Shown one piece after another: positions 883 to 28,095 of a stretch of 32,000 nt of DNA. Numbering within the stretch: position 1 is the first letter of the stretch; every line of letters starts with the position of its first letter. A program made the position numbers and the translations under genes. Source of the stretch: Candidatus Thorarchaeota archaeon (GTDB lineage Archaea > Asgardarchaeota > Heimdallarchaeia > Hodarchaeales > Hodarchaeaceae); NCBI GenBank assembly GCA_048882505.1, contig JBHLRO010000013.1:60001-92000 (forward strand), read 5' to 3'. A model generated the notes under the pieces. That model was given only the letters and a program-made list of their open reading frames with translations. It had not been told where the DNA came from and did no database searches.

Positions 883-2490
883 ATGAATAAACGAGAACTA
901 GTGATGGTTATTTTACCAACAAGTTACCTTTGGCTACTTACTAGTCTTTTCCTCCTTTTATATGCCTTTGATATTCTGGAAATCGTCTTTGAAACACAAA
1001 CCCAGCTTGAAATTCTGAATCCTGGCATAGTAATCCTTTTCACAACTGCTTGTTTAGCTACCGCAGCTCTTTTTCTTTCTGGATATATTATTGACAAAGC
1101 GCCTCAGCTTACTAAGACTACTATTCTCGTTTCGTTGTTTATGAGCTCTATATCGCTGTCAGGAATTGCATTGGGGATCTCCTTTCCGTTTTTGCTAATT
1201 ATTGCACTTCCATTACTCGGAATCTTTCTTGGAACCTTGGCATCTGCTTCAGGGGCCGCATTTGCAGCTTATTCCGATGTAAGTTTACGAGGACGAATAT
1301 ATGCGCTCTCTATATTCTTGAGTGCAGTCATCGCGCTTTTTATACTACTATCTAGTTCCATTATGTCACTACTCCCAAGCTATCCACTCGTGATAATTTC
1401 CGCTATTGGATTTCTCTGTTTCATTTTTGTGTCTTTGAGCTCTAAAACAATCTTTCCGTGGAAAAATGACCCTTTTCCCACTTCAATTCTAAAAATTATC
1501 AATCGTAGATCTGTTCAAGCTTATCTTACTGCTCAATTCTTTATATATCTCATGCTTGGAATCGTATTTGTCACAATACCTCAGATTGGAAGCTATCGTC
1601 ACCCGATGGTATCTATAGGTGGGTTTTCGCTCGATCAGCGGATAGTATTCTGGGGTTTAGTTTTCTTGGGTGATTTGATTGCTGTCATCCCTGCTGGAAT
1701 AATAGCTGATCGGGTTGGACGTAAGAACCTGATAGTGGTTGGGGCATACCTCATCGTTGTCTCAACCTTGAATCTTGGGCTTAGCGAGGATATGTGGATG
1801 TTTTTGTTTTCTGCTTACATACTGGGTATTAGTTTTGGTCTAATCCATCCTGCTGCGAGTGTTTGGTGTGATTTAAGTCCACTGGATTCGATTGGACGTT
1901 ATATGGCGTTAAATTATGTCAGTTTATTACAGGGAGTCGGCGTCGGACTATTTTTTGGCTTATTTGTCGTATCAGGAAATAATGCCAGTACCATTAGCTA
2001 TATCTTAATCGGTGTAACAGTTTTAGCGCTATTACCATTATTTTTTGTGTCTGATTCGTATCAACCCTTAGACATATTCCTTCTTCTTCTTAGCATCAAT
2101 GGCATGGCATGTTTCGATTATGCGTTCAAAAAGGACAAAGAAGTGACCCAGAAAGACCTATCACTAGTTGCAGGTGCTCTATCAGCTATTAGTACCTTCT
2201 TTGAGTCAGTGGATAGACAACATGCAACTCTAGACCTTGTCAGGCATGGAAATGTGTTTATAGTCCAAACGAAGGTACAAACGAAAAGCGGGGAACTCGT
2301 TGGAACGTTATTTGCAAACAAAAATGATCCCGAGCTTTACCGGCACTTAAAAGAATTTATGAGAAGTTTTTGCAAACAATACTCCGATCCTCTAATGGAT
2401 TGGAAGGGGGAGTTGCGTGTTTTTCATGGGGCTTCAGAGATCGCGGAAGAAGTTTTTGGTCCTCTACTTCCCTCCAGAACAGTCAGTTAA
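883..2490 (+). CDS. MFS transporter (12 TM) fused to C-terminal longin-like domain, paralogue A
   Basis: About 12 hydrophobic segments and MFS motif A (IADRVGRKNLI), then a soluble ~140-aa tail from ~2068 (LDIFLLLLSINGMACFDY...LVAGALSAISTFF...LVRHGNVFIV...LFANK...WKGELRVF...AEEVF) with a longin-like beta-beta-alpha-beta-beta-beta-alpha-alpha pattern. The ORF track starts at GTG 811; ATG 883, preceded by GAGGT, is the more likely start. Confidence 0.85.
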   Translation: MNKRELVMVILPTSYLWLLTSLFLLLYAFDILEIVFETQTQLEILNPGIVILFTTACLATAALFLSGYIIDKAPQLTKTTILVSLFMSSISLSGIALGISFPFLLIIALPLLGIFLGTLASASGAAFAAYSDVSLRGRIYALSIFLSAVIALFILLSSSIMSLLPSYPLVIISAIGFLCFIFVSLSSKTIFPWKNDPFPTSILKIINRRSVQAYLTAQFFIYLMLGIVFVTIPQIGSYRHPMVSIGGFSLDQRIVFWGLVFLGDLIAVIPAGIIADRVGRKNLIVVGAYLIVVSTLNLGLSEDMWMFLFSAYILGISFGLIHPAASVWCDLSPLDSIGRYMALNYVSLLQGVGVGLFFGLFVVSGNNASTISYILIGVTVLALLPLFFVSDSYQPLDIFLLLLSINGMACFDYAFKKDKEVTQKDLSLVAGALSAISTFFESVDRQHATLDLVRHGNVFIVQTKVQTKSGELVGTLFANKNDPELYRHLKEFMRSFCKQYSDPLMDWKGELRVFHGASEIAEEVFGPLLPSRTVS

Positions 2491-2759
2491 ACTCATAAGA
2501 GGAATTTTACGGGCATCTCGATATCTTCTGAATAATGGATCCAAAACGAGAGCAGAAATCGCAATTTTCTGAGTTTTTCAGGATGAAATCTGGTTATATT
2601 GCTTTGTCTCGATCTTTCTAGATGATATTCTAAATTGCCAGAAAATCCAGTCTTAAACCAGATCCCGCCGTTTAGAATTCAAATTTAATTTTTCAAATCT
2701 CTTTCTTTCGATGCCATCACCACGGATTTTATGAATAATATGCTTAAGGTTGTTTCAAG

Positions 2760-3200
2760 ATGTCCCCTAATGATAAAAAGCCCGAAAAGGAATGGAAAAA
2801 GCTCTCTCGCGATGAATGGCGTGATCTCCTTACAAATGAACAATATTACATTCTTCGAGACAAGGGAACCGAACGTGCATTCACGGGAAAATACTGGAAC
2901 CACTTTGAAGAAGGTGTATACACCTGTGCCGGATGTGGAACCAAACTATTTGAGTCACAAGCCAAGTTCGACTCAGATTGTGGGTGGCCAAGTTTCTCGG
3001 AACCCATGAAAGAGGAAACAGTACAAGAAAAATCAGATACTAGCTTTGGTATGCGTCGTACGGAGGTCTTATGCGATAATTGCGGAGGCCATTTAGGACA
3101 CGTGTTTAACGATGGGCCCAAAGAACGAGGTGGACTCAGATATTGCATTAACTCGGCCTCATTGAAGTTTAATAAGGTTCCTGACGAAAATCCAGATTGA
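2760..3200 (+). CDS. msrB: Peptide-methionine (R)-S-oxide reductase MsrB
   Basis: [12 protein letters not shown] and CDNC zinc-binding pairs, [15 protein letters not shown] and catalytic RYCINS (Cys codon TGC, not Sec). Confidence 0.97.
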
Positions 3201-3297
3201 TGGGAAATTTAGCCGAATAACAGTTACTTCGGACAACAGTGTGTTCAGATCTGTTGATTGGATTATTGCCATGGCTATTCGGGGATTCTAGCAAGTA

Positions 3298-3319
3298 TAT
3301 GATTTTAACGAAAATCATA
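3298..3319. repeat. Perfect 9-bp inverted repeat (TATGATTTT-aacg-AAAATCATA) between msrB and the methyltransferase; possible operator or hairpin
   Basis: Read directly from the sequence; function not established. Confidence 0.4.
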
Positions 3320-3513
3320 GGCCTCTTTTAATATTGGCAAAGGGATTCTCCAGGGACGGAGGAATATCCACGTCAATCTGACGATTTGATGCTCTTAACA
3401 AGGTTTTTCTCTAAATCTACCTTGCAGGATCATTTCCTTCATAAATCGCAAGAATCTTCTGATTTAAGAAGAGAAATTCTAATTTATAACCGATAAGCCT
3501 TAGAGGTATTGAA

Positions 3514-4284
3514 ATGGAAGAGCTGTTGGATGAAAAAAAACTTGAAATGAAAATAAAAGAGATGTATCATAAAGTTGCGTTGTTTCCCTTCCAATCGTAT
3601 CATATAGAGATTGGAAGAACATTAGCAGAAAAATTAGGATATTTACCTCAAGATTTGGATAAAATCCCGAAAGAAGCAGTTGAATCATTTGCTGGTGTTG
3701 GCAATCCCTTCGATTACGCTGACATAAAAGAAGGAGAAGTTGTTTTGGATTTAGGGAGCGGTTCTGGGATGGATAGCTTTATTGCCGCAATGAAAACTGG
3801 GAAATCAGGAAAGGTATACGGTGTCGATATTACAGTCACACAACTGGACAATGCAGAAAAAGCGCGAAACCTTATTAAAATAAACAACATAGAATTTCAT
3901 GAAGCAAACATTAGTTCACTACCATTTGAAGACGACAGTATTGATGTTATCATCAGTAATAATGTAATAAACCTTTCACCAGAAAAATTGGATGTTTTTA
4001 AAGAAATTTCCCGAGTCCTCAAACGTAACGGAAGATTAGCGGTTTCAGATGTTCTTTCGGAGAGGAAACTTGGAAAAAAAGTCAAAAATGATGCAGATCT
4101 TTGGGCAGCTTGTGTGGCAGGCGCAGCAGATCAAAATGAATATCGTAGAATTATCGATCAAGTAGGTATGGAAGTTATCGACATTCATGAAAACCCGGAA
4201 TACCAGTTCCGGTCAGAGTCAGCGATCGCAGCCAGCAGAGAGTTTGGTGTGAAGAGCGTTACATATCTTGCTAAGAAGAGGTAA
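3514..4284 (+). CDS. SAM-dependent methyltransferase, arsenite methyltransferase (ArsM/AS3MT)-like family
   Basis: ESFAGVGNPF, VLDLGSGSGMD (SAM motif I), DVIISNNVINL, VLKRNGRL and LWAACVAGA; GAGGT RBS upstream. Only one Cys, so the arsM symbol is withheld. Confidence 0.8.
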   Translation: MEELLDEKKLEMKIKEMYHKVALFPFQSYHIEIGRTLAEKLGYLPQDLDKIPKEAVESFAGVGNPFDYADIKEGEVVLDLGSGSGMDSFIAAMKTGKSGKVYGVDITVTQLDNAEKARNLIKINNIEFHEANISSLPFEDDSIDVIISNNVINLSPEKLDVFKEISRVLKRNGRLAVSDVLSERKLGKKVKNDADLWAACVAGAADQNEYRRIIDQVGMEVIDIHENPEYQFRSESAIAASREFGVKSVTYLAKKR

Positions 4285-4633
4285 AAACGATTTTTTCACC
4301 CACAGAATATCGGAATATACAAGATAAATGAAAATCCATTGGTTGAATTGCAATATTCTTTTTCTTCGCTCGGGATCAAAAAAAGGGGCTTCGATAAATC
4401 TAGCGCCCAAAAATTCCTAATGACTGAATCAATTGAAATAAATGCCCGTTTTTCCCAATTATAATGTTAAATAACTTCTTCTCTGGACATTGTTTTGCGG
4501 ATAAACTTGGAAGATACTTTTAAGAAGATACAATACTCAGAATCTGGGATTATTTCTGCCCATACCTATCAGTATTTATATTCGGGGAAGCGGTTCATGA
4601 GACATAAAGCGTATGACTTCTTTGTAGGGTGGT

Positions 4634-5383
4634 TTGACCATGGTTATATGCGACAAATGCGAAACTTATAACGAGAAAGGATCTGTATTTTGTGCAGCTT
4701 GTGGTTTTCAACTTTCAAGTTCAAACCAAGCTGATTTTCTGAAGGATGAGGTAGAAATTAAAAAAGAGCGGAATAAATCCTTGGCAATTTCCCCAAAATT
4801 TCAGAGTAAACAAGTCATCCATGATGAAAAAATCCTCCCCGCTAATTTTCCCTTTACTAATTACTTGATTATCCTCATTGGAGGTTTTAGTATTATAGTA
4901 GGATTTACTTCCTTGTTTGACAGATTCCCTTCTTTGCCGCCGATGCCGCGAATGCCGACAATACCATCCCTTCCTCCCCTTACGGGATCAATTTTTATTC
5001 CCCTTGGATTAACTATACTCGCCGCTATCATCGTTTTTCTTGTGGCCAGGGATTCGAGTCGTGATCCGGTTATCTTCTGGATTATAGAGGTTCTTATTCT
5101 AACAATAGGATTATCCACTCTTATTCCCGAATCTAGTACCATATTGATTCCCATTGGAATGACAATATCTGGACTTCTAATCGTTTTTCTTTTTTCGCGT
5201 CGTTCTGACCGACCTTCGGGAGTGTATGCGGGTCTATACATTGCAGTTCTCGTGGCTGGCACTGTTTTGTTGATTCCGAGTTCTTCCAACATCATTATCC
5301 CCCTTGGCTTCATCCTTATCGGTTTTTCATTGTTTGCATGGGGGATCCGATTTAGGCCGGAAACGCCCTCTGGTACCTTATAA
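4634..5383 (+). CDS. Zinc-ribbon membrane protein with Pro-rich loop and repeated TM hairpins (hypothetical)
   Basis: N-terminal CDKC...CAACG zinc ribbon, charged linker, one TM, PSLPPMPRMPTIPSLPPL, then ~5 TMs. ATG 4640 is an alternative to TTG 4634. Confidence 0.7.
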   Translation: MTMVICDKCETYNEKGSVFCAACGFQLSSSNQADFLKDEVEIKKERNKSLAISPKFQSKQVIHDEKILPANFPFTNYLIILIGGFSIIVGFTSLFDRFPSLPPMPRMPTIPSLPPLTGSIFIPLGLTILAAIIVFLVARDSSRDPVIFWIIEVLILTIGLSTLIPESSTILIPIGMTISGLLIVFLFSRRSDRPSGVYAGLYIAVLVAGTVLLIPSSSNIIIPLGFILIGFSLFAWGIRFRPETPSGTL

Positions 5384-5671
5384 AGGTAAACGCGAAGTGT
5401 AAAAACTATCCTCTGGAAGAAAATAATACAAAGATCGTAAAGATTCAAAAAAAGATAACAAACGACACTTCAGGCCTAATTTTAGCGTTTTTATGGGAAA
5501 TCTAATCTGGCCATATAATGACAAGAGAAAACAGATATCTAGAGACGTTACGATCGTCTCGTTTTATCCTAAAAAGAACTCGAAAAAGGTTTTAGAATCG
5601 CTGGCGGAATCGAGATACCATTCTAAAATAATGGTGCTCCCACATTTTACGCGTATATGGATGGATAATCA

Positions 5672-7360
5672 GTGAGTAGTCGCCATACTATTGTCATTAT
5701 GATTCCGACTATCTTTAGCTGGGTGTTAGCGTCTTTATTGCTCTTAGTGTATCCCTTTGACATTCTGGAATATGTTGAAACATTACCTACGAATCCTCTG
5801 GCTGGTTTAGGCTTGTTTTTGCTTGGAGGGATTCTTGTTCTGGCCGTTGCTTCCCTTTTTCTAACCGGAGACGTATTAGATAAGCATCCTGAGTATTTGA
5901 GACAAATTACAACAATTGGACTCGTTGGATGTTCCACTTCAGTGGTGTTGCTTGTACTCTTGGTTGAATACGGGCTATTCATACTAATTTCACTCGTGGG
6001 ATTAGCTGTGTTTTTTGGAATAACGATAACAAGCGCTGGCACGTTATTTGCAGGGCTTATCCCTCTTCAAAAACGAGGAAGTATCTATTCTCTTGGAATA
6101 TTTGTATTTATTTTAATTTCTTTGGTGAGTATCCTCTTAGGTGGACTTATATCGTCTCGTTTCGTTAGTGGCCTTCTTACTATGTCTTGGGTTAGTATTC
6201 TTCCTTTACTTGGCATCTTGGGAATCGGATTGTCGGTGATATTCTGGTTATTTTCACAAGATCTAGAGAAGCCTTGGATAAATGACAGATGGCCCACCCA
6301 TATTCGGAAAATCGTTGGAAGAAGATCTGTTAAAGCTTACCTCCTTACTCACGTTTTCATTTACCTCATGCTTGGAATTAGCATTGCAAGCTTTGCACGT
6401 ATCGGGGAAATATCATTTGATACTTCATGGGTCATTACTATCCCATCTTTTGATGTGTTTGAACTTCCTAAAGACAAAGTGTTCTGGTTTGTGGTTCTCC
6501 TAGGAGATTTGATATTTATTCTGTTCGCAGGTAGACTTTCTGACAGGATTGGTCGAAAGTCCCTTGTTGTAATTGCTCTGTACGGCATTGTATTTGCATC
6601 TTTGATATTTGGTCTCGAACGAACCCCGGGAAGTTTCTTGGTTGCTGCGTTCCTAACTGGTGGTTCATTCGCGTTGCTTCACCCTACTTTAGATTCGTGT
6701 ATTTGGGCCGATCTATCCCCCCGAGATGGCCTTGGCAGGTATTTTGCCTTGGGATTTATTTCATTAGCTATAGGTTTAGGCATCGGAACTGCAATAGGAC
6801 ATTGGATGCTCCAACCTACCCTTGATAACATAGGATTCATTACCTATATTCTTACTATTTTGGCTATTATGGGTGCTTTTCCCCTTTTTTGGGTAGCGGA
6901 CAGTTTTGAACCTTTAGAATTCACATTACTCATTGTTATAGAGGAGGGGGGACTTAATATCTTTGATTATTCCTTTGGAAGAGAAATAGATGTTGAATTG
7001 ACCCTTCTATCAGGAGCACTAACCGCCGTATCAAGTTTTTTTTCTGAAACTCTAAAAGAAAAAGGGATTTTAAATCTGGTAAGACATGGAAGTCATTTCA
7101 TCCTAACCGATCGGGATGCTGAAACAGGACTCTCAGCAGCCGTGTTTAGTAATAAGCTGGATCCGGAACTTCACTCCTCCCTAGGTAAATTTCTACGAAG
7201 ATTTAGTAAGGACTACGGTACAGTCATAAAATCATGGAACGGAGCTCGTTCAAAATTCGATGGAGCAGCAGAGCTCGCAGAGGAATTTTTTGGTCATCTT
7301 TCCCCCTCACGTGATCTCTCCAATACAAAAAAACCCCAGAACATGGTTTCCGCGTTATAG
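5672..7360 (+). CDS. MFS transporter (12 TM) fused to C-terminal longin-like domain, paralogue B
   Basis: Motif A RLSDRIGRKSL. Colinear with 883-2490 (FDILE, PWxNDxxPT, FIYLMLG, GDL, HP, WxDLSPxDxxGRY). Soluble tail from ~6914 (LEFTLLIVIEEGGLNIFDY...LLSGALTAVSSFF...LVRHGSHFIL...VFSNK...WNGARSKF...AEEFF). GTG start. Confidence 0.85.
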   Translation: MSSRHTIVIMIPTIFSWVLASLLLLVYPFDILEYVETLPTNPLAGLGLFLLGGILVLAVASLFLTGDVLDKHPEYLRQITTIGLVGCSTSVVLLVLLVEYGLFILISLVGLAVFFGITITSAGTLFAGLIPLQKRGSIYSLGIFVFILISLVSILLGGLISSRFVSGLLTMSWVSILPLLGILGIGLSVIFWLFSQDLEKPWINDRWPTHIRKIVGRRSVKAYLLTHVFIYLMLGISIASFARIGEISFDTSWVITIPSFDVFELPKDKVFWFVVLLGDLIFILFAGRLSDRIGRKSLVVIALYGIVFASLIFGLERTPGSFLVAAFLTGGSFALLHPTLDSCIWADLSPRDGLGRYFALGFISLAIGLGIGTAIGHWMLQPTLDNIGFITYILTILAIMGAFPLFWVADSFEPLEFTLLIVIEEGGLNIFDYSFGREIDVELTLLSGALTAVSSFFSETLKEKGILNLVRHGSHFILTDRDAETGLSAAVFSNKLDPELHSSLGKFLRRFSKDYGTVIKSWNGARSKFDGAAELAEEFFGHLSPSRDLSNTKKPQNMVSAL

Positions 7361-7395: not shown

Positions 7396-8292
7396 ATGTC
7401 ACAAAATATTTTCTTGCGATTAAGGGGACCTAATATCGTTGGATCGGCCCTCTTTGTTTTGACGGGCTTTTTGTTTGCGGTTCGAGAAACCCATTCATTT
7501 GACTGGATCAGAGCTGTCTTAATCACTCTCTCAATGTTATGTTTCAATATTTATATTTGGATTTCAAATGACTTTTACGACGCTCCGTACGATGCAGAGG
7601 ACGAATTGAAAGGGACTCGAAATGTGTTTTGCGAGCAACCAGATAGTCGGGAATACAAAATTGGATTAGGTGCCATGTGGCTTTCCTTAGTAGGAGGGCT
7701 CGTGATTGGGTTTTTGGCTGGTTGGATTTATTTTGCCTTTACTGCCGTAGGAATGGTATTGGCATATCTATATACAAGCCCAACCTTTCGGGCGAAAAGT
7801 AGGGCCGGCTGGGACTGGTTATTTCACACTGTTTGGTTCTTGATCTCTTTTCTCCCCCTTTATCTATTTATTCACGGATTTAATGTGATATGGGGTATTG
7901 AAGAAAGTAACATTCAGTTTTATGCTGTTTTCCTCTACATCGGTCTCGCTTCCCTTCTGGGGCAGATTAATCATCAAATTCCTGATTATAATATTGATAA
8001 AGAAACTGGGCAAATGACCACAGTTGTAGTTCTTGGAGTGGCGCGTACCAAGCAAATTAGGTATATCGTTTACGTTTTGATCGCTTCTAGTACAGTTGTT
8101 TTGTTTCTTATAACTGGATCTTATATTGGCCTTATTCTAATCCTAATTTATTCTCTGTTTTTGGTTTTTAAGACGAGGAATAAGGACCCCGCGGATATCC
8201 GAAGAGTAGAGGATGTCCCTTTCGTATGGATATACTTCTTTATCTTAGATTATCTGATTCTTTCTCCGTTTATCTTGACATTTCTTTCGTAA
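7396..8292 (+). CDS. UbiA-family prenyltransferase (subfamily undetermined)
   Basis: Multi-TM protein with first Asp motif NDFYDAPYD, YLYTSPTFRAK loop and second motif QIPDYNIDKETGQMTTVVVLG. Starts 35 nt after MFS-longin B. Confidence 0.88.
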   Translation: MSQNIFLRLRGPNIVGSALFVLTGFLFAVRETHSFDWIRAVLITLSMLCFNIYIWISNDFYDAPYDAEDELKGTRNVFCEQPDSREYKIGLGAMWLSLVGGLVIGFLAGWIYFAFTAVGMVLAYLYTSPTFRAKSRAGWDWLFHTVWFLISFLPLYLFIHGFNVIWGIEESNIQFYAVFLYIGLASLLGQINHQIPDYNIDKETGQMTTVVVLGVARTKQIRYIVYVLIASSTVVLFLITGSYIGLILILIYSLFLVFKTRNKDPADIRRVEDVPFVWIYFFILDYLILSPFILTFLS

Positions 8293-10923: not shown

Positions 10924-13488
10924 CTATATCCGATCGATTCTTAAATAGATCTGGTCTATTTTCGGTACTAAGGCAATGGTTTGTGCGATCACATCACAGA
11001 CAGAGAGGAAATATTCTAGTTCAGTATTTGATATGGGCCTCGGAATTGTATTCTTTTTATACTGGAGACTATAGCGACGAGAATGCAACCATTGCTTAAG
11101 AACTTGACAATTACCGATTTTGAAGTCCCACATCTCCTGAGTAACGTTTCCTATAAAGAACGTTCCATTAACTTCTTTTTTATCCTTAGATTGAAGATAT
11201 ATTCGTTGTTTTCCCGGATCATATGAAATTTTAGTAATTTTAAGGTTCTTAGAACCACTTATAGGGAATTCGGATTGACGTTTATTAATAGATTTTAATA
11301 AATGCAAAGAAATAAGTTTTTCACCGAGATCAGACATCTGATAAAAATCGGATTCATTTTCTGGGAATGGTATTTTTGGAAAATCACGAATCAATAGAGA
11401 CTCATACCGTATTCGATACGTTCGAGAGAATAAAACTCCGTAAACGTAGTTTATCAGCATTTCGGATTTAATCTGATAGTTTAGAGGTGGGAGAACGACA
11501 TTGGAATTACCTTGTATCTTTGTGACAAATCCATAAGCAGATTCTTTAGATTTGGGGGAAAGGAAACACTTGTGAAATGGTTTCTCTGTAATAAAAACGT
11601 GGGTAAATGGGGAATTTAGTAAGAGTTTGGTCACTATCAAGGCTGGATTATTATCTGAAATGTTATCCATCAAACGTTTCCGATACCGATCGATTAGCTC
11701 AGGTTCATATGAAAGGAACCTGTCATCAAATCCCCTATAACCAAAAGGTTTAATGAGTGCGATACTGCGATCACCTATCCCAAGCCCCTGGATACGATTT
11801 TTATCAAAATCCTGTGTTGAGTGTATACGTACACCCATTGATTCTAGGTTTTTTTCCCTTTTTCCGAAAAACAGTTTCAGTCGGTGTCTCAGAGTTTTTT
11901 TATCAACATCTATGACAAGTTTATCCCTGTGAGTAGCGATTCCCACACTCTTATATCCAAATAATTGATCTAGTGAATAGAACTTCTCATACCTTTTTTG
12001 AATATCATCAGGTGTCTCTGAGGGGACAAACAATAGATCTTCAGTAACAGGAATTTGAGAGAATCTCGAAGTATCAAATCCCCCAGCAAGTTCCGCGAAT
12101 TTTTCGATTGTTTGGGGATGAGAGAGACTCCAATAATGAACTTTGGCTAGAGAATGATGAGCTTGGTTTGTGTAAACAAGGAAGAATACACAAACACCTA
12201 ATTTAATGTTAAATGGATTGCCAGTTTCTCCTTTGCGGAGGTCACCATGAAGATTAACAATGTAAATATGATCAAAAACTCGTAACAGTTCTTTTCTCAT
12301 CCCTCGGAAGATCTTTCCATCCAAAAAAGTATTATTGGTTATATATGCCACAATTCCTTTCTTTTTTTGTCCCACTATCCACTGAGCCCAACGAATGAAT
12401 TTAATATAATCATCTGAAAGCGGTTGGACATTTCGTTCATTTATCTTCTTCTTATAGTCTTTCAAGATGGTTATTAACCACTGAGGTCTATTCTTGGACA
12501 ATCTACGATATGGCGGGTTTCCTAATACTACTACTACATCAACCTTTGATTCGAGGAATTTAAGTTCCAAGGCATTACGTAAATACATGTTTGGTAGGTT
12601 ATATGAATCAGGGGCGATTCCCAAGTCCGCAGTAGCGAGCCAAATACAGAAGTGACTAATCAAGTAGGGGGTTGGAAGCACTTCGAATGTAAAAAGATTT
12701 TTTAGAAATCCTTCGTTATACCACCTAGTTAATTCTTGTATGGCTTGTGACTGTTGAGTAGAATATGAGGTGAAGAACCAATCCTTGGCAAAGCGAAGTA
12801 TCCCAAGAGGAAATGCCGATGTTCCACTTGCAGGATCAATTAAGATTATATCAGGGTCTAGAGCTCCCCCCTTTTTTCCTAAATCAGAACGTAGGAGACT
12901 GTCGATCCCTTGGACAATAAAATCAACTATTGTTGGGTGAGTATTGATCACACCCTGTTTTTTCGCCGTTTCAGTGTTATAATTCCTCAGGAAAGAACTG
13001 TAAAATAGATTTATCACCTGGTCTTCTCGAAAATTACGGAAAAACTCGGACAATTCAGCTTTATTAATGATGGCAAGAATTGTATTGACATGATGCTCAA
13101 GTAACGGATTTGAAAATATGGAAACGAAGTTTTTCAAGAACAGATGTTTATTATAGCAGGAAATTAAGCTATATTGCTGGGAAAATCGGTTCGATTCTGG
13201 CAATTTGCTACCCTGCCAAACCCAAGAAACGAAAATGAAATTTATTATTGATTCAGCAAGAAACTTCGTCAAATCTCGCATACTTAGCGAAATATCACTA
13301 GAACTAGTTGGTATCCATTTCTGAGTTTTAATAAGCCAATCCTTAACCATCAATTCTTCCGGGGTTAATTCTCCCTTCTGTGTCAGGATTTTTAAGAATA
13401 CTTGTTGAAGATTATTGGCGTAGGGTATCAAATCCCTAGACAAACCTGTAATCGCTCTGTTTTCTGAATTACAACTGAATCTTTTCAA
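10924..13488 (-). CDS. N6-adenine DNA methyltransferase with Type ISP-like C-terminal specificity domain; no nuclease or helicase domain visible
   Basis: THPTIVDFIV, motif I DPASGTSAF, motif IV VLGNPPY, DDYIKFIRWA, YITNNTFLDG...GMRKELL, NLHGD. C-terminus GIATHRD, GYRGFD, RYESLLIRDFPKIPF, GEKLISLHL and WDFKIGNCQVLKQWL resembles the Type ISP C-terminal domain. Start uncertain (TTG 13488 or ATG 13350). Confidence 0.85.
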   Translation of the reverse strand: MKRFSCNSENRAITGLSRDLIPYANNLQQVFLKILTQKGELTPEELMVKDWLIKTQKWIPTSSSDISLSMRDLTKFLAESIINFIFVSWVWQGSKLPESNRFSQQYSLISCYNKHLFLKNFVSIFSNPLLEHHVNTILAIINKAELSEFFRNFREDQVINLFYSSFLRNYNTETAKKQGVINTHPTIVDFIVQGIDSLLRSDLGKKGGALDPDIILIDPASGTSAFPLGILRFAKDWFFTSYSTQQSQAIQELTRWYNEGFLKNLFTFEVLPTPYLISHFCIWLATADLGIAPDSYNLPNMYLRNALELKFLESKVDVVVVLGNPPYRRLSKNRPQWLITILKDYKKKINERNVQPLSDDYIKFIRWAQWIVGQKKKGIVAYITNNTFLDGKIFRGMRKELLRVFDHIYIVNLHGDLRKGETGNPFNIKLGVCVFFLVYTNQAHHSLAKVHYWSLSHPQTIEKFAELAGGFDTSRFSQIPVTEDLLFVPSETPDDIQKRYEKFYSLDQLFGYKSVGIATHRDKLVIDVDKKTLRHRLKLFFGKREKNLESMGVRIHSTQDFDKNRIQGLGIGDRSIALIKPFGYRGFDDRFLSYEPELIDRYRKRLMDNISDNNPALIVTKLLLNSPFTHVFITEKPFHKCFLSPKSKESAYGFVTKIQGNSNVVLPPLNYQIKSEMLINYVYGVLFSRTYRIRYESLLIRDFPKIPFPENESDFYQMSDLGEKLISLHLLKSINKRQSEFPISGSKNLKITKISYDPGKQRIYLQSKDKKEVNGTFFIGNVTQEMWDFKIGNCQVLKQWLHSRRYSLQYKKNTIPRPISNTELEYFLSVCDVIAQTIALVPKIDQIYLRIDRI

Positions 13489-20429: not shown

Positions 20430-21125
20430 TTATGCCTTTTCGATCCGATAAAGACAACATTCGTCTCCGAGTCGGATACATTTATCCTTTGGGATGTTCT
20501 TTCCAAGTAATTCACTTATAATGGTCTCATGAACAGTACAGACAAGTGGTTCTTCTTTTGCAATACGATATACTAAACAATTTGACAAACGTAAGTTATA
20601 GTCATCACCATTCTCGATAAGCTGAGGAAAAACACCCCAATTGGCTAGGATTTCGGTTATTGCGTCAAGTTTCTTTTTAAGGGAGACGGGTTTACCAGTT
20701 TCAAGATAGTTTTGGTGCATTGAATATTCAACTTCCCTAGCTAGGGTTATCCCCATATTCTCGAGAAGTCGTTTTGCTTTCGACGGACCCAGCTCGTTTT
20801 TCACCTCTTTGAGCAGACGAAGGCCAAAATCAGCGTAATCTTTAGGAAATATGTTCAGAGCGGATGGATTCAGTGCATAAACCATTGCTGGCCTGCCCGT
20901 TGTACCTTTCCTCTGAGTGCGAGTCACGAGTTCCTCTTTCTCTAGCATTAGGAGATACTGGCGTGCCGCATTTACCGATATTCCTGCAGCTTCAGCAATG
21001 TCTTTTACGCTTGTTTGATGAGAATCGTCCGGACCAACTCTATTTACCAGAAGAAATTCGAGGATCTTTTCTCTGGAGCTTAAATTTTCTTTTTTAATCG
21101 AAGAACTCCTTGTATACATCATCAT
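20430..21125 (-). CDS. Winged-HTH transcriptional regulator with Cys-containing C-terminal sensor domain (SufR-like)
   Basis: SVKDIAEAAGISVNAARQYLLMLEKEELV...GRPAMVYAL, FPKDY, and C-terminal NCLVY...VCTVHE...CIRLGDECC. Confidence 0.85.
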   Translation of the reverse strand: MMMYTRSSSIKKENLSSREKILEFLLVNRVGPDDSHQTSVKDIAEAAGISVNAARQYLLMLEKEELVTRTQRKGTTGRPAMVYALNPSALNIFPKDYADFGLRLLKEVKNELGPSKAKRLLENMGITLAREVEYSMHQNYLETGKPVSLKKKLDAITEILANWGVFPQLIENGDDYNLRLSNCLVYRIAKEEPLVCTVHETIISELLGKNIPKDKCIRLGDECCLYRIEKA

Positions 21126-26768: not shown

Positions 26769-27383
26769 ATGGGTATACTTGCCAAGATTTTTGCAAAGAG
26801 TCGAAGATCTAAGCTGACAATTGGGATTTTGGGTGCCCCAAATGCAGGAAAAACAACTCTTGCAAATCGCATATCGTCTGAGTGTGGAGACGGAACCCCA
26901 TTGGGGGAAGTGTCTCCCATACCACATGAAACCAGAGACTGTGTTGCAATGGAGCATTGCTCCATTACGGATCAGCATGGTTCCTTAGATCTTACTATTG
27001 TAGACACTCCTGGTATCACTACTTCCATAGATTATAGAGAGTTCCAAATATATGGTCTCAGCAAAGATCAGAGTATTAATCGCGCTAAAGAGGCAACTCG
27101 AGGTGTAATAAAAGCAATTCAGTCTTTAGATCGTATGGATGCGGCCATCGTCGTTGTAGATTCTGCTCGTGAACCGTTCGATCAGGTGAATTGGACTGTT
27201 ATAGGAAATCTAGAGGCACGTAATATTCCCCTTATCGTTGCTGCCAATAAGACGGATCTCGCCAAATCAAATCCAGATTTGGTGCGAGACGTATTCCAAA
27301 GTGATATTATCCCAATTTCTGCAAAAAAAGGTACAGGGATGAATGAACTTTACACCTCCCTATTAGGGCTTTCGCAAATGTAG
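26769..27383 (+). CDS. oapA: Archaeal Era-like small GTPase, OapA/ArvA type
   Basis: G1 GAPNAGKTTLANRI, SPIPHETR, G3 DTPG, EATRGV, DSAREPFDQVN, G4 NKTD, G5 ISAK; first gene of a three-gene set. Confidence 0.88.
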   Translation: MGILAKIFAKSRRSKLTIGILGAPNAGKTTLANRISSECGDGTPLGEVSPIPHETRDCVAMEHCSITDQHGSLDLTIVDTPGITTSIDYREFQIYGLSKDQSINRAKEATRGVIKAIQSLDRMDAAIVVVDSAREPFDQVNWTVIGNLEARNIPLIVAANKTDLAKSNPDLVRDVFQSDIIPISAKKGTGMNELYTSLLGLSQM

Positions 27384-27384
27384 T

Positions 27385-27708
27385 GTGGTGGGAATCCAAA
27401 TGGATCTTAGAATAGATTTTGTGACGATCAATACAACTAAGAAGATGGATGTCACAGAGAAATGTGATTTTATAATTTCAAAGTTGCAGAATGAGAGAGT
27501 TGTAGTTTTTGAAGGTGGCCTCCAGCCAGAAGAAGAGGCAGAACTAATTCAAGAGGCAATGAAACAGATTGATCACGAGGATTTTATGGGATATAGGATT
27601 TTATCTCCGACGCCTGTCCGAACATCTGGTCTTTTTTCCCGTAAAGATATCCGTATGACTGTGATCGCACCTTCAAACTATCAGAGACTTTCCATTGCGT
27701 TAGTATAG
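27385..27708 (+). CDS. oapB: OapB/ArvB (DUF2073-like) protein
   Basis: VVVFEGGLQPEEEAELIQEAMKQIDHEDFMG and MTVIAPSN; 1 nt after the GTPase stop. ATG 27400 is an alternative start. Confidence 0.8.
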   Translation: MVGIQMDLRIDFVTINTTKKMDVTEKCDFIISKLQNERVVVFEGGLQPEEEAELIQEAMKQIDHEDFMGYRILSPTPVRTSGLFSRKDIRMTVIAPSNYQRLSIALV

Positions 27709-27726
27709 ATTATCGAATGATGTGAA

Positions 27727-28095
27727 ATGTCCAGTAACCAGGATAGCTTGAAGCGCTATAAATGTGCCCAATGTGGTCGGAGTCCCACTTCGGAATGGGA
27801 AATTTTCAAAGGTTGCAAATGTGGACATAGACTTTTCCGAATTGTACCTCGGCCTAAACCGTTATTAATTCCTGGCAGGCCGTATCAGCTTACAAATAAG
27901 CAGGAAGTGCCAGAGTTTTTAACCGTAAAGGAGGAAAGAGAAGGTATCTACGAAATCAATGTTAACAAACTCCTCCAGAATAACGAGGCCCAGCAGACTC
28001 CCTTGGTAGTAGGAACGGAGGGGGTTTTCCTCATAAAAGGGTTGGTACCGAGAAGAAAAAGTGAGACCCAACGAAATACTAACTCACAAGTTTGA
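27727..28095 (+). CDS. oapC: OapC/ArvC zinc-ribbon protein (DUF2072-like)
   Basis: KCAQCGR...EIFKGCKCGHRLFR and GIYEINVNKLL; third gene of the set. Confidence 0.78.
   Translation: MSSNQDSLKRYKCAQCGRSPTSEWEIFKGCKCGHRLFRIVPRPKPLLIPGRPYQLTNKQEVPEFLTVKEEREGIYEINVNKLLQNNEAQQTPLVVGTEGVFLIKGLVPRRKSETQRNTNSQV

Follow-up and report, generated by a model that had tools for sequence, protein, structure and literature searches.

Paralogous MFS permeases with a C-terminal longin-fold domain in Hodarchaeales

We analyzed a 32,000-nucleotide stretch of an Asgard archaeal genome (hereafter the window; C13:60001-92000, C13 being its contig) that carries two paralogous genes, A (883-2490) and B (5672-7360), each encoding a major facilitator superfamily (MFS) permease that ends in a cytoplasmic longin-fold domain. 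The genome measures 4.3 Mb and is 94.5% complete, and the database relatives of the window's proteins carry the labels Hodarchaeales, Heimdallarchaeota or Promethearchaeota. We favor, with moderate confidence, a reading in which A and B, derived from an old tandem duplication, are MFS-longin permeases that function independently of each other and whose tails serve as a shared, highly constrained cytoplasmic module for regulation or docking. In the best-supported reading of the two copies, A is the faster-evolving and dispensable one and B is the conserved core copy. An earlier note on this DNA had instead proposed that the two proteins may pair through their longin tails as a heterodimer in the style of Mon1-Ccz1, FLCN-FNIP and NPRL2-NPRL3, forming a two-input sensor, and had named independent transporters with different substrates as the alternative; it is this alternative that fits the data better. 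The fusion of an MFS permease to a longin is a new combination of known kinds, MFS proteins and Asgard longins, whereas the A-B pair itself is ordinary paralogy.

Two permeases and their longin-fold tails

The two genes are divided as follows, in window positions:

883-2052, + strand: paralog A, MFS permease part with 12 transmembrane (TM) helices (Pfam MFS_1, 57.5 bits)
2053-2490, + strand: paralog A, C-terminal cytoplasmic longin-fold domain with the stop codon, beginning at the DSYxPL linker (AlphaFold2 (AF2) model, VIA and Foldseek)
5672-6898, + strand: paralog B, MFS permease part with 12 TM helices and an extracellular beta-hairpin between TM7 and TM8 (Pfam MFS_1, 54.2 bits; AF2 model)
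6899-7360, + strand: paralog B, C-terminal longin-fold domain with a disordered end of about 12 residues and the stop codon (end-to-end alignment with the A tail)

Both open reading frames are intact despite heavy substitution, as the earlier note had held, and in BLASTP the two proteins align from TM1 to the C-terminus over 557 columns, of which 39% are identical and 59% positive (E 2e-110), a likeness far beyond chance. The end-to-end alignment that had been read by eye is thereby borne out, and every peptide string quoted for it is present. The open frame of A begins at GTG 811; however, its homologs align only from residue 22-25 or so of that frame, and direct reading of the sequence places an AT-rich, TATA-like box at about 797-806, upstream of A. 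Based on these two features, ATG 883 is the likely start of A.

Both permease parts score above the gathering cut-off of Pfam MFS_1 (PF07690), which is 33.4 bits, and thus belong to this family by profile score. The full-length AF2 model of B (predicted local distance difference test score, pLDDT, 87; predicted template modeling score, pTM, 0.87) has 12 long helices before residue 408, arranged in the MFS fold of two six-helix halves. More than 400 MFS chains in the PDB match this model at E<=1e-3 in Foldseek, including those of LmrP, VMAT, GLUT and YajR. DHA1-type MFS antiporters rank highest in Foldseek for the permease (LmrP, VMAT and NorA; TM-score by target 0.71-0.82), although the identity to them is just 12-15% and Motif A (G-x-x-x-D-R/K-x-G-R-R/K) is intact only in the C-terminal half. 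There, in the TM8-9 loop, D291, G294, R295 and K296 (B numbering) are invariant across 45 sequences, while all that remains of the TM2-3 copy is an invariant D70 with a K after it. Judged by the models, the permease part looks like MFS transporters, those of the DHA1 type among others, and gives no hint of a substrate, and a language-model atlas returned generic MFS clusters only.

The earlier note had also stated that both proteins retain polar residues within TM helices, namely FDILE, GDL and HP. This holds for the G of GDL, which is invariant, and for the H of HP, which is nearly so, but the FD of TM1 is only partly conserved. As a separate observation, residues 253-265 of B (window 6428-6466) form a two-stranded beta-hairpin in the TM7-TM8 extracellular loop of the AF2 model, which is unusual for MFS proteins; the corresponding loop of A is shorter.

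The tail comprises the last ~140-145 residues, directly after the permease, and was modeled with AF2 on an alignment of 52 tails (pLDDT 82, pTM 0.78). The model shows the topology b-b-a-b-b-b-a-a with no N-terminal helix (DSSP: E8-15, E18-24, H33-53, E62-65, E68-77, E80-88, H93-115 and H127-138), and the same elements are repeated in the tail of the full-length B model, beginning about nine residues past TM12. The top Foldseek matches of the tail in the PDB are all longins: Bet5/Trs23 of TRAPP, AP sigma subunits, VAMP7, Sec22b, Mon1-Ccz1, Fuzzy and a Lokiarchaeota longin dimer. VIA, a structural search independent of Foldseek, gave Z scores of 13.4 to 3cue_C (TRAPP Bet5; 124 residues, root-mean-square deviation 2.4), 13.0 to 7q3d_C (Fuzzy), 12.9 to 4afi_B (VAMP7) and 12.7 to MON1A. 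Its ranks 1-32 were occupied by longin-type chains (Z 9.8-13.4); roadblock domains began at rank 33, with a Z of 9.8 over 97 residues, and the remaining ones scored 8.2-8.7. As modeled, the tail is structurally closer to solved longins than to roadblock/LC7 domains.

The designation MFS-longin, which the earlier note had given from the letters alone, is therefore right at the level of the fold, because the top structural matches are longins and roadblocks appear only from Z 9.8 down. No curated sequence family fits: neither tail matched any Pfam family at E<=10, which leaves them outside the curated longin sequence families, and a profile of the 52 tails found nothing below E 0.1 among PDB sequences, with chance matches only (E>=0.14). 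The linker between permease and tail, D-S-[YF]-x-P-L, spans about six residues and is invariant or nearly so. The NKxD string of the tail (NKND in one paralog, NKLD in the other) was considered as a GTPase G4 motif and rejected, since its D is not conserved (NKAS, NKTS and NKSK occur) and the domain has no P-loop.

Clades, constraint and the question of pairing

To place the two genes, we searched all 24 genomes of the window's order, fetched 40 loci and constructed a tree of 56 proteins. Three clades, A (16 rows), B (21) and C (15), each received 100% support in the Shimodaira-Hasegawa-like approximate likelihood ratio test (SH-aLRT), so that A and B stand as separate clades across ~20 species. 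The third full paralog, C, sits on contig C1 of the window genome; it is found in most assemblies, its rows representing 14 of the 21 genomes that the tree includes from the genus, and is always unlinked to A and B. A rarer and distant small clade, D, is limited to three of the order's other genomes. In a sample of 301 Asgard genomes, matches of family length came only from the window's own order (19/20 in family f1, 1/2 in family f2 and 0 in other families), and outside the order the tail alone matches, inside unrelated proteins of 720-760 aa.

Measured between the window genome and G014, its nearest relative, the ratio of nonsynonymous to synonymous substitution rates (dN/dS) amounts to 0.11 in A, 0.10 in B and 0.09 in C. 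These low ratios and the separate, fully supported clades confirm the earlier proposal of an old duplication kept by selection. Mean conservation is higher in the tail than in the TM part of every paralog (0.74 against 0.69 in A, 0.83 against 0.74 in B and 0.81 against 0.66 in C), and the columns invariant across A, B and C number 39/146 in the tail vs 41/438 in the TM part. B tails reach an average column identity of 77% across 13 species. By these alignments, the tail is the most conserved part of the protein in all three clades.

Within this picture A is the less constrained copy, with the longest branches and the lowest within-clade conservation; it was lost in one lineage and is fragmented in G009 and G013. 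Such a pattern could indicate that A is a degenerating or regulatory pseudo-transporter that merely modulates B. We consider this very improbable, because dN/dS is 0.11 over the TM part of A as well as over the whole protein, because A keeps Motif A (D..GRK), an RG motif, GDL, HP and the conserved cytoplasmic loops PWxNDxWPT and WxDLSPxDxxGRY, and because it is intact in at least 11 species. In G009, a single-contig assembly, A appears to be split: its C-terminal half adjoins B (L046, C1:2911844-2912539), while its N-terminal half lies ~686 kb off (L071, C1:2224789-2225676), which is either a rearrangement or an assembly artifact.

The proposal of a dedicated A-B heterodimer, acting as a two-input sensor or transporter, draws on the longin fold of the tails, known longins being commonly dimers of paralogs (PDB matches; PMC10933270), and on gene order. 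A and B are direct same-strand neighbors, A then B, with gaps of 50-214 bp in G012, G018, G011, G015, G017, G013, G003, G001, G020, G004 and G021, and the same arrangement apparently lies at contig ends in G009, G019 and G016, giving a tandem in ~14 species. The two clades are thus linked in most related genomes, a check that the earlier note had itself suggested, but their adjacency is no better kept than that of unrelated neighbors. A block of ten genes is syntenic across the genus, consisting, in this order, of a Ras-like GTPase, a small ORF, an IPK-MBL fusion, the M42 peptidase, A, B, a hexapeptide transferase, UbiA, an aminotransferase and a TPR protein. Because A and B were inherited together with these neighbors, their adjacency is no special evidence of functional coupling. 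Moreover, in the window genome the two genes are separated by 3.2 kb, a spacing shared only with G014, because three unrelated genes, for MsrB, an S-adenosylmethionine (SAM) methyltransferase and a zinc-ribbon protein, have been inserted between them. This peculiarity, like paralog C and clade D, was absent from the earlier note.

The co-occurrence of the two clades also speaks against an obligatory partnership. In five species of the ~21 in the genus (G002, G005, G006, G007 and G008), B and C are present and A is missing; there, the M42 peptidase gene lies 48-209 bp from B, tblastn at E<=10 found no remnants of A in these B-only genomes, and clade B encloses the copies of B that they carry. 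The approximately unbiased (AU) test (p 0.0015) rejected the alternative that A originated later, with the B-only state ancestral and A grouping with the B of A-bearing species. Based on the clean syntenic gap, the nested B copies and this test, A was lost in these species and B persists without it.

The tails point in the same direction. The tail/TM identity ratio of B is 1.25 between B-only and A-bearing species and 1.17 among A-bearing species; since it is no lower when B-only species are involved, the constraint on the B tail is independent of A. Only five fixed differences separate the B tails of the two groups, four of them conservative. Paralog C, although never linked to A or B, has an equally conserved tail. 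Between A and B, nine tail columns are fixed differently, all of them conservative core changes (I/F, V/L, A/S, I/V and D/N) with no complementary charge swaps. Few conservative differences together with shared invariance therefore look like a common tail function rather than a diverged, complementary interface. Taken together, these observations count against the two-input heterodimer of the earlier note, which we judge to be improbable; an obligate A-B heterodimer is unlikely, and facultative A-B contact is possible.

Several results nevertheless weigh against independently functioning permeases. A was never found without B, and the order and adjacency kept in ~14 species would also fit A depending on B. 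Complex prediction with tail A and tail B gave an ipSAE of 0.53 against 0.00 for the best control, a verdict of 'weak support', with at least 77% contact agreement between runs and a partner pLDDT of at least 77; some tail-tail contact is therefore possible. The mark of the complex tool was reached by 58/80 solved complexes and 2/110 mismatched pairs, and marks at 0.60 or under were reached by just 7/80 solved complexes and by both passing mismatches. In addition, proteins closely related to a true partner pass the predictor too, and its result therefore cannot tell a heterodimer from a homodimer and heterospecificity is not demonstrable with it. The predicted contact is compatible with generic longin-longin association.

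Further points on the same side concern function. The permease part has no match among PDB sequences, an NCBIfam scan gave only matches far below the cut-offs (DHA1-like and a weak sub-threshold TIGR00880), and by these two comparisons it matches no specific MFS subfamily; with sub-threshold DHA1-like matches only, no substrate can be assigned. Transport activity of A and B is a prediction, as is a docking role of the tail. A rigid coupling of permease and tail is suggested by the short invariant linker and the high pTM.

We retain the reading of separate permeases, under which A, B, C and the rarer D would be Hodarchaeales-specific secondary transporters that join a 12-helix MFS core to a cytoplasmic longin through the short linker. 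An old tandem duplication gave rise to A and B, which then evolved separately under strong purifying selection; each would be a transporter of its own, with the paralogs differing in substrate or in regulation. The tail could report the rocker-switch state of the permease to a cytoplasmic partner or, alternatively, could gate transport upon partner binding. Like other longin and roadblock domains, the tails may in addition bind one another, in homo- or heterodimers.

The tail family and its relation to known systems

The tail is not confined to these permeases. Its profile has 17 matches in the window genome; besides a fusion to an Arf-like GTPase and five further polytopic membrane proteins, these include TPR proteins, one HerA-like and one ParA-like ATPase and small stand-alone proteins. 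The five polytopic proteins, each ending in the tail domain, are encoded at C30:24718-27306(-), C1:71164-72900(+), C7:10109-11314(+), C10:8451-9662(-) and C3:36811-37950(-). The GTPase fusion lies close to the window, 256-1236 bases past its end (C13:92256-93236, + strand), and is a 317-aa Arf/Ras-like GTPase with a C-terminal domain of the tail family (profile E 2e-6).

Against 1.84 billion cluster representatives, the tail profile retrieved 2234 proteins at E<=1e-3. The 17 representatives at E<=1e-30 are the MFS family itself, followed by a gap in E-value and then by a broad set; of the 148 top representatives, 83 have at least three hydrophobic segments and carry the domain at the C-terminus. 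A more distant MFS protein, P0069, also bears a domain of the tail family. A Pfam scan of the membrane parts of the C30 protein and of eight database representatives yielded no family except the MFS part of P0069. Atlas clusters of the tail shape consist mostly of Promethearchaeota 'hypothetical proteins', some with Arf/Ras or receiver domains. The tail family is a large one in Asgard archaea, and its commonest place is at the end of polytopic membrane proteins. A C-terminal longin-like module on polytopic membrane proteins thus looks like a general, undescribed Asgard architecture.

The literature that we searched contained no description of MFS-longin or transmembrane-longin fusions in Asgard archaea. 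The Asgard longin/roadblock superfamily has undergone a large expansion with many lineage-specific fusions (Liu et al. preprint, 10.1101/2020.10.19.343400). The fusions described in the literature involve GTPases, TRAPPC3, DENN and two-component domains, with transporters or polytopic membrane proteins not mentioned. Dimers of Asgard longin and roadblock domains, including Thor and MK-D1 roadblock dimers, have been described as well (PMC10933270). Compared with the Lokiarchaeota Roadblock-Longin longin dimer (PDB 8yqg), the A/B tail has the same phylum-level origin and the same fold (Z 11.2 to 8yqg_B); unlike the described Asgard longin/roadblock fusions, it is joined to an MFS permease.

The company that the tail keeps raises the possibility that A, B and C are membrane-anchored GTPase platforms, or transceptors, whose tails, alone or as dimers, bind an Asgard small GTPase, coupling the transporter state to the GTPase switch or the reverse, with the three paralogs as different inputs. 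Longin and roadblock platforms bind GTPases in this way in TRAPP, Mon1-Ccz1 and Ragulator. The best structural matches of the tail are GTPase-binding longins (Bet5/Trs23, Fuzzy, Mon1/Ccz1 and an SRX domain), the tail family is fused to the Arf-like GTPase just past the window, and atlas clusters of the tail shape have Arf/Ras/Roc domains in 45-47% of their members. Conservation of the tail, notably of helix alpha-1, in all three paralogs is what would be expected for a common partner, and a Ras/Roc-type GTPase gene lies 3-4 kb upstream in the conserved block. However, no GTPase adjoins or co-varies with A, B or C, and the longin fold is also put to uses that have nothing to do with GTPases, as in SNAREs, adaptor sigma/mu subunits and sedlin. 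We regard the platform as an attractive but rather unlikely mechanism. A still more specific version, in which the tails of A, B and C form longin dimers within the membrane on which a small Asgard GTPase docks, coupling nutrient transport to its switch, with A-B as a specialized heteromer in most Hodarchaeales, seems to us highly unlikely; if true, such docking would be a prokaryotic forerunner of membrane signaling of the transceptor-Ragulator/Rag or Mon1-Ccz1 type.

Few known archaea are more closely related to eukaryotes than Hodarchaeales, and in eukaryotes longin domains are core components of the apparatus by which small GTPases are placed on membranes. The eukaryotic longin heterodimers (TRAPP Bet5-Trs23, Mon1-Ccz1, Fuzzy-Inturned, FLCN-FNIP and NPRL2-NPRL3) resemble the A/B tails in fold and topology, with VIA Z scores of 11-13.4 over 120-135 aligned residues, and likewise comprise two paralogous longin-bearing proteins per genome. 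Unlike their soluble subunits, the A/B longin forms the C-terminal end of a permease with 12 TM helices, shares only 9-16% identity with them and has no Pfam match; A is also dispensable in five species, and A-B pairing is putative. If A and B did form a heterodimer, paralogous longin heterodimers would have a precedent in archaea, but the comparative data speak against such pairing being obligatory.

MFS transporters with a C-terminal cytoplasmic domain offer another comparison. In E. coli YajR (YAM domain, PDB 3wdo), which is among the structural matches of the full-length B model, and in yeast Snf3/Rgt2, a transporter core is likewise followed by a module with a presumed regulatory, signaling or dimerizing role. 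Snf3 and Rgt2 are glucose sensors of yeast, and the STAS domain of SLC26/SulP transporters is an analogous C-terminal module. In contrast to these three, the appended domain of A and B has a longin fold, is attached without a long flexible linker and shows stronger conservation than the permease. A longin welded to a transporter, and better conserved than it, would offer a testable case of membrane tethering before endomembranes.

Neighboring genes and other features of the window

The genes and sites next to A and B are as follows:

2-403, - strand: M42 aminopeptidase, the conserved upstream neighbor, divergent from A (Pfam Peptidase_M42; syntenic in 8 loci)
2760-3200, + strand: first inserted gene, methionine sulfoxide reductase B (SelR) (Pfam SelR, E 3e-55; between A and B in the window genome and G014 only)
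3514-4284, + strand: second inserted gene, class I SAM-dependent methyltransferase (Pfam Methyltransf_31, E 9e-34; counterpart in G014 only)
4634-5383, + strand: third inserted gene, protein with an N-terminal zinc ribbon (weak Pfam zinc-ribbon matches; counterpart in G014 only)
5542-5568, + strand: hairpin followed by a T-run, a possible terminator of the inserted genes (terminator-like site, with the hairpin noted at 5542-5560, in the 289-bp spacer upstream of B)
7396-8292, + strand: UbiA-family prenyltransferase, the conserved downstream neighbor (Pfam UbiA, E 8e-20; syntenic in 10 loci)

Direct reading of the sequence also places a putative promoter element, an AT-rich, TATA-like box, at about 5621-5634, ~40 nt before the GTG start of B. 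Because the three inserted genes, the hairpin with its T-run and this box all precede B, A and B of the window genome are probably separate transcripts. A scan with a sigma-70 promoter model returned 28 sites vs 21.6 expected by chance, a model that is not applicable to archaea. A tRNA scan of the window found none.

Three further loci lie elsewhere in the window. The product of the gene at 10924-13488 (- strand), which has a counterpart in G014 only, is likely a single-chain restriction-modification enzyme; its 854 aa combine an Eco57I-type methylase domain with a C-terminal specificity domain of Type ISP. At 20430-21125 (- strand), between a ZIP transporter gene and an ABC exporter gene pair, lies the gene for a winged-helix regulator that also contains a 'methanogen output domain 1' (MetOD1) as a fusion. 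Finally, the region 26769-28095 (+ strand) holds an OapABC trio, in which a small Era/Arf-like GTPase precedes OapB (PF09846, E 4e-17) and a zinc-ribbon gene with a weak likeness to OapC.

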